Origin: Escherichia coli
GTDB taxonomy: Bacteria; Pseudomonadota; Gammaproteobacteria; Enterobacterales; Enterobacteriaceae
DNA: 64,000 nucleotides
NCBI RefSeq assembly: GCF_048403405.1
Contig: NZ_CP183129.1
Strand: one strand, 5' to 3'
In this document: positions 13,277 to 43,061 of the stretch, one piece after another
How the letters are laid out: each line of letters begins with the position of its first letter
How positions within the stretch are numbered: position 1 is the first letter of the stretch
Translations under genes and position numbers: made by a program
Notes under the pieces: generated by a model
The model's input: the letters and a program-made list of their open reading frames with translations, nothing else
Database searches by the model: none
Told to the model about the DNA's origin: nothing

Positions 13277-13316
13277 AAAAATAGCCGGAGGTGAAAACCG
13301 TCCGGCTGTTTTTTGC
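13275..13316. terminator. bidirectional rho-independent terminator between convergent tesB and amtB
   Basis: AGCCGGA...TCCGGCT stem flanked by an A-run on the left and a T-run on the right. Confidence 0.7.
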
Positions 13317-22739: not shown

Positions 22740-22764
22740 GCCGGATGCGGCTTGAGCATCCGGC
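22740..22764. repeat. REP-like palindromic hairpin between convergent queC and fadM
   Basis: GCCGGATGC-ggcttga-GCATCCGGC read directly. Confidence 0.6.
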
Positions 22765-40910: not shown

Positions 40911-42275
40911 ATGAACGATTATAAAATGACGCCAGGTGAGCGACGCGCGACCTGGGGTTTAGGGACCGTATTCTCGTTGCGCATGCTGGGCATGTTTATG
41001 GTTCTGCCGGTTCTGACCACGTACGGCATGGCTCTGCAAGGTGCCAGCGAAGCATTAATCGGTATTGCCATTGGTATTTATGGTCTGACTCAGGCCGTTT
41101 TTCAGATTCCGTTTGGCCTGCTTTCCGACCGCATTGGTCGCAAACCATTAATTGTCGGTGGGCTGGCAGTGTTTGCCGCCGGTAGCGTTATCGCTGCGCT
41201 CTCTGACTCCATCTGGGGAATTATTCTGGGCCGGGCGCTACAAGGCTCCGGTGCGATTGCCGCTGCCGTTATGGCGCTGCTTTCCGATCTCACGCGCGAA
41301 CAAAACCGCACCAAAGCAATGGCGTTTATCGGCGTGAGCTTTGGCATTACCTTTGCCATTGCGATGGTGCTTGGCCCGATCATCACTCACAAACTTGGGC
41401 TGCACGCGCTGTTCTGGATGATCGCTATTCTGGCAACAACCGGCATTGCGTTGACCATTTGGGTTGTGCCCAACAGTAGCACTCACGTACTTAATCGTGA
41501 GTCCGGAATGGTGAAAGGCAGTTTCAGTAAAGTGCTGGCGGAACCGCGGCTGCTGAAACTCAACTTTGGCATTATGTGTCTGCATATTTTGCTGATGTCG
41601 ACGTTTGTTGCCCTGCCAGGGCAACTGGCTGATGCGGGATTTCCGGCGGCTGAACACTGGAAGGTCTACCTGGCAACGATGTTAATCGCCTTTGGCTCGG
41701 TCGTGCCTTTCATTATCTACGCTGAAGTTAAGCGCAAAATGAAGCAAGTCTTTGTCTTCTGCGTCGGGTTGATCGTGGTTGCGGAAATTGTGTTGTGGAA
41801 CGCACAAACGCAGTTCTGGCAACTGGTGGTCGGCGTGCAGCTTTTCTTTGTGGCGTTTAATTTGATGGAAGCCCTTCTGCCTTCACTTATCAGTAAAGAG
41901 TCGCCAGCAGGTTACAAAGGTACGGCGATGGGTGTTTACTCCACCAGCCAGTTTCTTGGCGTGGCGATTGGCGGTTCGCTGGGCGGCTGGATTGACGGCA
42001 TGTTTGACGGTCAGGGGGTATTTCTCGCTGGCGCAATGCTGGCCGCAGTGTGGCTGGCAGTCGCCAGTACCATGAAAGAACCGCCGTATGTCAGCAGCTT
42101 ACGCATTGAAATCCCGGCGGACATTGCCGCAAACGAGGCGTTAAAAGTGCGTTTGCTGGAAACTGAAGGCGTCAAAGAAGTGTTGATTGCAGAAGAAGAA
42201 CATTCAGCTTATGTGAAAATCGACAGCAAAGTGACGAATCGCTTTGAGGTTGAACAGGCAATTCGTCAGGCATAA
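40911..42275 (+). CDS. yajR: MFS transporter YajR
   Basis: 454 aa from internal ATG MNDYKMTPGERRATWGLGTVFSLRMLGMFMVLPVLTTYG... (table ORF 40713 starts far upstream inside cyoE). Confidence 0.93.
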   Translation: MNDYKMTPGERRATWGLGTVFSLRMLGMFMVLPVLTTYGMALQGASEALIGIAIGIYGLTQAVFQIPFGLLSDRIGRKPLIVGGLAVFAAGSVIAALSDSIWGIILGRALQGSGAIAAAVMALLSDLTREQNRTKAMAFIGVSFGITFAIAMVLGPIITHKLGLHALFWMIAILATTGIALTIWVVPNSSTHVLNRESGMVKGSFSKVLAEPRLLKLNFGIMCLHILLMSTFVALPGQLADAGFPAAEHWKVYLATMLIAFGSVVPFIIYAEVKRKMKQVFVFCVGLIVVAEIVLWNAQTQFWQLVVGVQLFFVAFNLMEALLPSLISKESPAGYKGTAMGVYSTSQFLGVAIGGSLGGWIDGMFDGQGVFLAGAMLAAVWLAVASTMKEPPYVSSLRIEIPADIAANEALKVRLLETEGVKEVLIAEEEHSAYVKIDSKVTNRFEVEQAIRQA

Positions 42276-42290
42276 AAAACGAGGCGAATT

Positions 42291-42377
42291 GCCTGCTGCG
42301 CTACGCTTACCAGGCCTACAAAGTTCCTGAGTTATAAACCTTTGTAGGCCGAATTAGCTGTTCATGCTGCATTCGGC
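42291..42377. repeat. BIME-like pair of inverted REP elements between convergent yajR and yajQ
   Basis: ...GCTACGCTTACCAGGCCTACAAAG and inverted CTTTGTAGGCCGAATTAGC...GCATTCGGC; resembles REP consensus tails (CAGGCCTACAAA) from memory. Confidence 0.55.
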
Positions 42378-42402
42378 ATGAACAAAACGCACATTGTCGC
42401 GA

Positions 42403-42894
42403 TTAATCGCGGAAGTTTTTGAACTGGAACGGCTGACCGAGATCGCCACCACGTACCATCGCCATGACAGCCTGCAAATCATCACGAGATTTACCCGTTA
42501 CGCGGATCTCATCGCCCTGAATTTGCGCCTGCACTTTCAGTTTGCTGTCTTTGATCATCTTGACGATTTTCTTCTGGGTCGCACTCTCAATGCCCTGTTT
42601 CAGTTTCGCTTCCACAAACCAGGTTTTACCGCTATGAACGATATTTTCCGGTACATCCAGCGAACTGCCTTCAATGCCGCGCTTCAGCAGCTTGGCACGC
42701 AGAATATCCAGCAACTGATTGACCTGGAAATCGGACTCGCTCAACACTTTGATGGTTTTGCTGGCGTCGTTCAGCTCAAATGAGGCTTCAACATTACGGA
42801 AGTCAAAACGGGACTCCACTTCGCGGCTCGCGTTATCGACCGCGTTACGTGCTTCCTGAAGATCAACTTCAGAGACAATATCGAAAGATGGCAT
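42403..42894 (-). CDS. yajQ: nucleotide-binding protein YajQ
   Basis: 163 aa from internal [53 protein letters not shown]... Confidence 0.93.
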
Positions 42895-43061
42895 CTTTTC
42901 CTCTCCCTTCATTTTTGATGCGAAGCATAATACCTGCAAAGTTAAATAACCAACAGTCCTGCACCAGGACGTATCCCTTAATTGTGCATAGTCGCAACAG
43001 CATGCACAATTAAGGGATAGCCTTATTGAACACCCGGAGTGGTTGCGGGTGAGGAGGAACA

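Follow-up and report, generated by a model that had tools for sequence, protein, structure and literature searches.

Based on the consensus scoring, genome comparisons, folding predictions and published K-12 transcript ends presented here, we consider it likely that the spacer between the converging genes yajR and yajQ of Escherichia coli holds a degenerate BIME-1 relic, confined to a single locus, which is transcribed as the bulk of the 3'UTR of yajQ and acts as a Rho-assisted terminator and exonuclease block, and which is neither an IHF site nor a mobile unit that copies itself. The stretch of E. coli DNA analysed, referred to throughout as the window, measures 64,000 nt. The element is of a known kind and lies at a known locus; the sequence-only reading that had first singled it out was correct, and what it found is ordinary. 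The result matters little past correct annotation, REP and BIME sequences being the best-catalogued repeats of E. coli, and the mildly unusual points are limited to the loss of the IHF core in place, a rewired RNA pairing at the 3' end of yajQ and a patch of changes that perfects a stem of the Y unit. The locus may be of use as a clean case of in-place loss of the IHF core from a BIME-1, followed by neutral drift over the whole history of the species, and as a junction whose three states (intrinsic terminator, REP pair and two-gene insert) can be compared. It also provides an RNA end, mapped in K-12, whose use would be set by the predicted pairing of repeat-derived sequence with the coding sequence of the neighbouring gene, and not by the canonical REP hairpins.

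The REP pair and its BIME-1 flanks

In the window, which is oriented in reverse of the MG1655 coordinates, yajR ends at 42275 (+) and yajQ at 42403 (-). The two genes thus converge on a stop-to-stop spacer of 127 nt, and the element is extragenic, sitting between the two stop codons, as the sequence-only reading had placed it. The RefSeq annotation of the matching stretch in strain 118UI likewise names yajR and yajQ. The 401 nt around the element are 100% identical to 118UI and find matches in 5424 of the 5426 complete E. coli genomes; over the full length of the window, colinearity with 118UI is broken. The convergence of yajR and yajQ is kept across Enterobacterales. The NC_000913 annotation carries no REP features anywhere, so that the missing annotation at yajQ-yajR is uninformative. 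The K-12 orthologue of the element is probably REP40 of EcoCyc, by elimination, because between REP39 (443.0 kb) and REP41 (464.8 kb) the yajR-yajQ pair is the only canonical REP pair; yajQ, yajR and REP40 are not mentioned in the supplements consulted of the 2026 REP preprint. The RNase III site described for yajQ belongs to the panE-yajQ 5' spacer and not to the yajR-yajQ spacer, and the IS1 described in a Salmonella Dublin paper is in panE and not at the yajR-yajQ junction.

The consensuses used for the Y (35 nt), Z1 (29 nt) and Z2 (37 nt) units were validated on 100 kb of MG1655, in which each of the three has exact or near-exact copies; units of the same lengths, named y, z1 and z2, are described in PMC8266576. 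Scoring was done by blastn-short and by ungapped comparison to the consensus, with 200 first-order Markov random windows (64 kb) giving the chance level. The spacer contains one Z1-type and one Y-type unit in inverted orientation (Table 1). Their scores are far beyond chance, the random maxima being 22/29 for Z1 and 25/35 for Y and the runner-up positions of the real window 19 and 21, respectively, which excludes an outcome without any REP match. The best Z2 match in the window (23/37) lies elsewhere and is at chance level. The Y unit opens with GTAG (42344-42347), and the CTAC at 42316-42319 is the complement of the GTAG of the Z1 unit; the GTAG ends of the two units face inward, 24 nt apart, and both tetranucleotides are invariant in 20 E. 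coli alleles. A GTAG at the 5' end of the palindrome is required by TnpA-REP (PMC8266576).

The proposal of an inverted, BIME-like REP pair made in the sequence-only reading is therefore borne out by the scores, the kept GTAG ends and the BIME-1 arrangement, flanks included. The strings that it quoted are present (CAGGCCTACAAAG at 42311-42323 and CTTTGTAGGCCG at 42340-42351), with an 11-nt inverted repeat of 100% complementarity at 42313-42323/42340-42350. The internal dyads that it mentioned are also real, and both are perfect: 11 nt at 42255-42265/42285-42295 and 9 nt at 42359-42367/42376-42384. Its extent, 42291-42377, agrees within 1 nt with that of the two units, whereas the whole element is larger (about 42280-42397).

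The Z1/Y pair represents the only full-length GTAG-type units of the window; short hairpins listed in EcoCyc as REP41 and REP42 also lie within it and do not match the Y or Z consensus. Other search models were less suited to these units. A rigid REP pattern gave zero matches, because its loop was fixed at 9 nt and that of Z1 is shorter, and a 14-nt core pattern with 3 mismatches performed overall no better than chance, the two real units being its top matches. Rfam holds no REP family, and the related match there is only a partial naRNA4 (14.7 bits against a gathering score of 59.5).

Both units are degraded. Taken alone, each forms a REP-like hairpin weaker than the consensus, and within the whole spacer the minimum free energy (MFE) fold uses other pairings. 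The lower stem of Z1 has one C·C mismatch, one pair of the Z1 stem fails to form in every one of the 14 E. coli haplotypes considered below, and the Z1 DNA hairpin reaches -7.5 / -5.0 kcal/mol compared with -8.5 / -8.1 for the consensus. The Y unit of the window has a lower stem of 7 bp without mismatch and a broken upper stem (-7.8 kcal/mol, compared with -12.2 for the consensus and -3.2 for the MG1655 allele); two pairs of the Y lower stem are unpaired in 11 of the 14 haplotypes.

The closest yardstick is the BIME-1 between yajD and tsx in MG1655 (EcoCyc REP37, 430969-431066), with which nearly all of the spacer (~42280-42397, ~118 of 127 nt) aligns, both outer flanks included; linker and flank motifs were defined empirically from the MG1655 copies. 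The yajD-tsx copy is absent from the window, and comparison of the filled and empty sites delimits a unit of 137 nt, from CGTAAAATTGCC to GTTGTTAACAATCAG, which in MG1655 is placed in the A-tract of a bidirectional terminator. Measured against this unit, the yajR-yajQ element spans about 42280-42397. The two have in common an inverted Z1 and Y with GTAG inward, a linker homologous to the L motif, a position between converging genes and homologous flanks (AAAACG..AATTGCC, here on the yajR side, and CGGCATGAACAAA.CACA.TTGT, here on the yajQ side). Unlike the yajD-tsx copy, the yajR-yajQ element has an 11-nt IHF core missing from its linker, both stems degraded, and neither the distal end of the right flank nor any neighbouring intrinsic terminator; no other BIME-1 copy has its linker. 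In terms of the family, an inverted Y and Z1 with family flanks is present, and the ~35-nt L linker with an IHF site is not. It is not a BIME-2, because its Z unit is of the short type and there is one pair only, in place of the tandem Y/Z2 pairs with short linkers, a strong gyrase site, that characterise BIME-2; the mak-araJ BIME-2 of MG1655 was taken for comparison. The Z1 unit begins 15 nt past the yajR stop codon; a literature search on the effect of REPs near stop codons found no such paper.

Table 1. Features of the yajR-yajQ junction (window coordinates; hairpins are predicted).
Feature	Position	Strand	Details
Putative yajQ mRNA 3' end	42250	-	Orthologous to MG1655 445327; measured in K-12
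Hairpin A, 13-bp stem	42255-42295	-	Last yajR codons 42255-42267 CAGGCAATTCGTC with flank and first Z1 bases 42283-42295 GGCGAATTGCCTG
yajR-side outer flank of BIME-1	42280-42290		CGAGGCGAATT; aligns with left end CGTAAAATT of yajD-tsx BIME-1
Z1-type REP unit, 29 nt	42291-42319	-	27/29 to Z1 consensus; blastn-short E 6e-7; (-) strand reads GTAGGCCTGGTAAGCGTAGCGCAGCAGGC
Hairpin B, 11-bp stem	42313-42350		Pairs one REP with the other over the linker, GGCCTACAAAG / CTTTGTAGGCC
Linker, 24 nt	42320-42343		AAAGTTCCTGAGTTATAAACCTTT; L-motif remnant minus 11 nt
Y-type REP unit, 35 nt	42344-42378	+	28/35 to Y consensus; GTAGGCCGAATTAGCTGTTCATGCTGCATTCGGCA
Hairpin C, 11 bp here	42359-42384		Distal Y half with outer flank, TGTTCATGCTG / CGGCATGAACA
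yajQ-side outer flank of BIME-1	42379-42397		TGAACAAAACGCACATTGT; close match to yajD-tsx flank TGAACAAAGCACACGTTGT
Small hairpin CGCGAT-TA-ATCGCG, then GAAGTTTTTGA	42397-42422	+	Overlaps yajQ stop codon; sole terminator-scan match

Variation of the spacer in E. coli

The linker with its REP ends occurs at exactly one place per genome in 5280 of the 5426 complete E. coli genomes (~97%), and megablast of the spacer likewise gives a single place in each genome. With sensitive BLAST, the spacer has a median of at least 38 matching places per genome (up to 40 counted in each; 5425 genomes). The spacer thus belongs to a dispersed family, and the short linker, being single-copy, is unique to the locus, and this copy has spread to no other place. 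The 20 alleles sampled, which come from diverse lineages and include those of MG1655, E2348/69 and O55:H7, represent 14 haplotypes. In all of them the element is at one position and has the short linker, and its length is 127 nt in 19 alleles and 126 nt in one.

The spacers of the window and of MG1655 differ by 10.2% (13 of 127 positions), compared with 7.4% at the 4-fold degenerate sites of five flanking genes (p = 0.15); two nearby promoter-bearing spacers differ by 1.2% and 3.4%. Since the divergence of the spacer is about that of the 4-fold degenerate sites, it has drifted at about the neutral rate, and we conclude that the element is a single old insertion, now decaying. The drift at neutral rate also makes strong selection on the sequence unlikely, which speaks against the terminator role proposed here.

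These figures could also be accommodated by a neutral relic, that is, the decaying scar of an old REP/BIME insertion without effect on either gene, in which case the 3' end of yajQ described below would be a chance exonuclease stop. We regard this as unlikely, although several observations besides the divergence agree with it. The stems are weakened, to the point that the Y hairpin of the majority allele is almost lost (-3.2 kcal/mol), and they show no covariation. The element is also wholly absent from 127 genomes (2.3%), in which the entire spacer is replaced by a 4.1-kb segment encoding a SEL1-like repeat protein and a TPR protein, accompanied by a divergent, AT-rich yajR 3' end; the element is thus dispensable. 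Genome-wide, no difference in half-life has been found for REP-bearing genes (bioRxiv 10.64898/2026.03.23.713779). The evidence that leads us to prefer a terminator and exonuclease block comes from the transcript ends and predicted folds. About 19 further genomes have neither the linker nor the two-gene insert, and a rare IS insertion in the spacer may be found among them.

The Y unit of the window is a minority allele, set apart from the majority allele by changes at seven linked sites in a 22-nt stretch. No intermediates between the two were found among the 20 alleles, where the minority form is shared with WP3-W18, MSHS133 and L104 only; at most 585 genomes reach the 95% identity needed for sharing it. 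Three of the seven changes lead to the perfect lower stem GCCGAAT/ATTCGGC, and the changes look like a quasi-palindrome correction. Gene conversion from the upstream direct repeat CGAATTGCCTG was considered as a source of this patch and rejected, the intermediate positions being unconverted.

Transcript ends and predicted folding at the junction

In the K-12 Term-seq data of PMC7815308 (Supplementary file 1, with a separate tab for each growth condition; the rows used are those of LB 0.4 and LB 2.0), a 3' end on the yajQ strand, 445327(+), is listed three times, and in LB 0.4 the interval from 441410 to 446773 has no other curated 3' end. In MG1655, this position lies 26 nt into yajR and follows the 3' arm of hairpin A by 5 nt. 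Transferred to the window through the colinear block (window position = 487577 - MG1655 coordinate), the end (Table 1) implies a yajQ 3'UTR of 153 nt, comprising the whole BIME and the last 26 nt of yajR in antisense. The tables consulted (PMC7815308, Supplementary files 1 and 2) also give a Rho termination region at 445853(+), with a Rho score of 9.3 (p = 1.7e-18) and a position that is imprecise, the score being computed in 800-nt windows; bicyclomycin raises the downstream reads there from 13 to 105. The RNA data are all from K-12, and the allele of the window differs at 13 of the 127 positions.

In the scheme suggested by these K-12 data, and by extension for the strain of the window, yajQ transcription would run through both REPs, so that the element would make up the bulk of the yajQ 3'UTR. 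Transcripts continuing into antisense yajR would be terminated by Rho and presumably trimmed 3'-to-5' by exonucleases back to hairpin A; the dominant stable yajQ end 5 nt past this hairpin could reflect either such trimming or weak intrinsic termination at the same place. The element would thereby serve yajQ as a Rho-assisted terminator and exonuclease block, the counterpart of the 30-nt bidirectional intrinsic terminator of Klebsiella and Enterobacter. The stem of hairpin A is followed by UUCUAUCU, and weak intrinsic termination there could produce the Term-seq end, which would argue against trimming.

A comparable role has been described for REP325, the yjdM-yjdN BIME-2, which is a partly Rho-dependent terminator and an mRNA stabiliser (bioRxiv 10.64898/2026.03.23.713779). 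In both cases REP hairpins lie in a 3'UTR, downstream termination is partly Rho-dependent and the upstream mRNA is, or would be, protected. However, REP325 consists of 12 alternating Z2/Y units within an operon, compared with one decayed Z1/Y pair between converging genes, and the yajQ end is at a composite hairpin formed with the coding sequence of the neighbour and not at a REP hairpin. About 30% of the convergent spacers of E. coli contain a REP (bioRxiv 10.64898/2026.03.23.713779).

The predicted RNA folds of both strands are much more stable than those of shuffled sequences (z = -5.0 and -3.5), and the MFE fold consists of the three hairpins A, B and C (Table 1) instead of two canonical REP hairpins. 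Hairpin A, which includes the 11-nt perfect dyad 42255-42265/42285-42295 and carries the yajR stop codon in its loop, appears in the MFE folds of both strands and in all 14 E. coli haplotypes. Hairpin B corresponds to the 11-nt inverted repeat that joins the REPs, and 93.5% of its cells are paired across the 14 haplotypes, with no compensatory changes. Hairpin C contains the 9-nt perfect dyad and has a 7-bp core, GTTCATG/CATGAAC, that does not vary among the alleles sampled. The three-hairpin fold of the yajQ 3'UTR, with A at the 3' end, has z = -5.2 in the window, -6.1 in MG1655 and -6.7 in O55:H7, and this architecture is predicted for 14 of 14 haplotypes. No compensatory base changes were found in any helix among the 14 haplotypes, so that covariation favours neither the three-hairpin nor the canonical REP fold.

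Several of these results are at odds with a relic that has no effect on its neighbours. The yajQ 3' end is sharp and appears three times in a Term-seq file of three tabs, though the scan of the spacer finds no other yajQ terminator. Although ~10% of the positions are substituted, 19 of 20 alleles have kept the length of 127 nt. Hairpin A is predicted in every haplotype and is lengthened in the O55:H7 group by a synonymous CGT-to-CGC change in yajR, and some hairpin is always kept at the junction in related genera. A more far-reaching interpretation would be that the decayed BIME has been co-opted, its outer flank having become an arm of hairpin A. In that case a yajQ 3'UTR covering the yajR stop codon could couple the two genes, for instance by formation of a duplex between the 3' ends or by interference with yajR termination, and the CGT/CGC change and the seven-site Y patch would be traces of selection or of template-switch repair. 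We hold this to be quite doubtful and retain the terminator and exonuclease block as the preferred reading.

The same gap between the stop codons is filled differently in other genera. In Klebsiella, Enterobacter, Leclercia, Lelliottia and Siccibacter the spacer is 30-35 nt long and consists of a lone A-tract/GC-hairpin/T-tract terminator. In Salmonella there is a single REP-like hairpin, which lacks GTAG. REP pairs, of unit types peculiar to them, occur in Citrobacter and Pseudocitrobacter; C. youngae has its Y-like and Z-like units on the sides opposite to those of E. coli, with an unrelated linker. In the group of Escherichia, Salmonella and Citrobacter, REP-type hairpins have thus replaced the intrinsic terminator, apparently more than once. 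Among the cross-genus loci returned, that of E. albertii is cut inside yajQ and none is from E. fergusonii. The terminators of Klebsiella, Enterobacter, Leclercia and Lelliottia presumably fulfil the same task of ending converging transcripts in this gap, but with 30-35 nt and one GC hairpin, compared with the 127 nt of REP-derived, partly Rho-dependent sequence in E. coli.

This shared position raises the question of whether the palindromic pair is itself a bidirectional intrinsic terminator, stopping both converging transcripts at one overlapping hairpin without Rho. Such a role would have precedents, as 78 REPs lie inside detected bidirectional terminators (bioRxiv 10.64898/2026.03.23.713779), and on the yajQ strand a U6 run follows the Z1 unit. 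However, this run is 11 nt from the Z1 stem, in the loop of hairpin A, and the terminator and promoter scan finds neither a promoter-like site nor a hairpin with an adjacent T-tract inside the element. The junction does not figure in the SEnd-seq-derived table of 306 bidirectional terminators of the same preprint, whose rows pass from 443004 to 464806. The K-12 Term-seq tables used (PMC7815308) place the yajQ end past the element, within yajR, followed by Rho-dependent read-through, and list no yajR 3' end at the junction. A bidirectional intrinsic terminator is therefore very unlikely here. The terminator scan gave one match (shuffled sequences average 1.0), the small hairpin over the yajQ stop codon; speculatively, it would be the one terminator-like candidate for yajR.

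The linker, IHF and mobility

When the linker is aligned (MAFFT) with the 35-nt L motifs of the yajD-tsx and yaaX-yaaA copies of MG1655, it shows a single gap, which is exactly CAATATATTGA. These missing 11 nt hold an IHF-like site, ATTCAATATATTG on the other strand. The IHF consensus WATCAANNNNTTR is found with 1 mismatch in both reference L motifs, and its best match in the spacer has 3 mismatches. The alignment thus indicates that the element is of BIME-1 type with the IHF core deleted, and that it would not be a functional RIB/RIP. An IHF-binding RIB/RIP site, with a role at the DNA level in nucleoid organisation or supercoiling, is accordingly a reading to which we give hardly any credence: the Z1-linker-Y architecture with BIME-1 flanks is of the right kind, and BIME-1 linkers are reported to bind IHF (PMC2817692), but the segment lost is precisely the IHF-like core, and the linker lacks it in 20 of 20 sampled E. 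coli alleles.

The REP pair also bears some resemblance to REPINs, in which an inverted REP doublet is replicated as a whole with assistance from RAYTs (PMC3116915, PMC3337134), as it has two inverted REPs with a short spacer outside genes. Unlike them, the yajR-yajQ doublet is single-copy in 5280 genomes, is decaying and shows no sign of replication. The many near-identical copies of doublet and spacer that mark a REPIN, the GC-rich hairpin between an A-tract and a U-tract, with overlapping 3' ends of the two transcripts, that marks a bidirectional intrinsic terminator, and the tnpA-REP gene between cognate REPs that marks a REPtron/RAYT association were not found here.

The sequence-only reading had drawn attention to an IS200/IS605 element 14 kb away. 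This element is real: compared with MG1655, yajI is interrupted in the window by 1.75 kb of inserted DNA (56653-58403; 14.3 kb from the BIME), which encodes a Y1_Tnp tnpA and an OrfB_IS605 tnpB (with a Cas12f1-like TNB domain as well). Its relevance to the REP pair is unsupported. The sole Y1 transposase found in the window is the one adjoining this tnpB in yajI, with no REP match nearby, and the consensus scan found no REP matches at the ends of the insertion. That the pair is active mobile or target DNA, either as DNA on which a Y1 transposase (a RAYT or the TnpA of the nearby IS200/IS605) still acts or as a hotspot tied to this insertion, is barely credible: the GTAG needed by TnpA-REP (PMC8266576) is kept in both units, the same window offers a presence/absence polymorphism of a BIME-1 (the missing yajD-tsx copy) and the IS200/IS605-family element is genuine, but the linker is single-copy wherever present and has hence left no daughter copies, megablast of the spacer finds one place per genome, the 20 alleles show no size variant beyond the one of 126 nt, no RAYT-like gene with flanking REPs is seen in the window, and IS200/IS605 transposases recognise their own end hairpins, TnpA-REP being a separate group (PMC8266576). 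The insertion in yajI is an ordinary tnpA and tnpB insertion sequence, for which no link to the BIME was found, and the BIME itself is best regarded as the single-locus BIME-1 relic that probably ends the yajQ transcript.

Allelic variation within and beside the yajR-yajQ BIME

In the Y-type REP unit on the yajQ side of the BIME, the window differs from the majority allele by seven linked substitutions over 22 nt (42355-42376), three of which remove the mismatches of the lower stem, giving 7 bp of perfect pairing, and no intermediates between the two forms were found among the 20 spacer alleles sampled. The pattern of this patch resembles the outcome of a template switch (quasi-palindrome correction) or of conversion; a donor sharing 28 nt of identity is absent elsewhere in E. 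coli genomes. Near the opposite end of the spacer, the third position of a yajR Arg codon (42266) carries a synonymous CGT/CGC polymorphism in perfect linkage with the flank haplotype at 42278-42288 (AAAAAACGAGGCGAATT versus AAAAGCGAGGCGAAATT). The CGC form is predicted to extend hairpin A, in which the last yajR codons pair with the BIME flank and the first Z1 bases, to ~15 bp with one bulge. This association may reflect co-adaptation of the codon and the flank, or linkage only.

Replacement of the spacer and the 5'UTR of yajQ

Of 5426 complete E. coli genomes, 127 have a 4.1-kb segment in place of the BIME spacer (strain 1368KP is given as an example in the table); it holds two genes, one for a SEL1-like repeat protein and the other for a TPR protein. 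The yajR 3' end of these genomes is AT-rich and divergent, and they fall into two sub-haplotypes. In strain ET650, an IS1 adjoins the yajQ-side end of the segment. On the other side of yajQ, RNase III cleavage in the 5'UTR (MG1655 444573) stabilises the yajQ mRNA (PMC5371410); this site is unrelated to the BIME and bears on yajQ mRNA stability.

Locations of features in the window and of the spacer replacement
Feature	Location	Strand	Remark
REP42 (EcoCyc name)	window 13283-13307		short hairpin, tesB-amtB
REP41 (EcoCyc name)	window 22740-22764		short hairpin, fadM-queC
panE-yajQ divergent spacer	window 42895-43061		location of RNase III site
tnpB	window 56696-57904	-	OrfB_IS605 + Cas12f1-like TNB, domain match
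tnpA	window 57912-58439	+	Y1_Tnp, domain match
4.1-kb replacement	NZ_CM173843.1 3547408-3551584		strain 1368KP; equivalent to window 42276-42402

Other loci, including differences from MG1655

The yajD-tsx spacer (window ~60024) lacks the 137-nt BIME-1 (EcoCyc REP37) found in MG1655. Comparison of the two identifies the empty site as the A-tract of a bidirectional terminator, TGATAAAAAATGCCGGATATGAAATCCGGCATT, and this clean filled/empty pair defines the boundaries of the BIME-1 unit. Also in the window, yajI is interrupted by an IS200/IS605-family insertion sequence (56653-58403) that is absent from MG1655; its tnpA and tnpB lie on opposite strands and thus form a divergent gene pair. The pgpA-yajO interval holds ~2 kb of additional sequence (50291-52274) compared with MG1655, where there is only a 53-nt spacer with a hairpin named REP38; in strain 118UI, a pentapeptide-repeat protein gene is annotated between pgpA and yajO. 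Neither the REP41 nor the REP42 hairpin of the window contains GTAG or matches the Y/Z consensus; in K-12, detected bidirectional terminators coincide with both of them.
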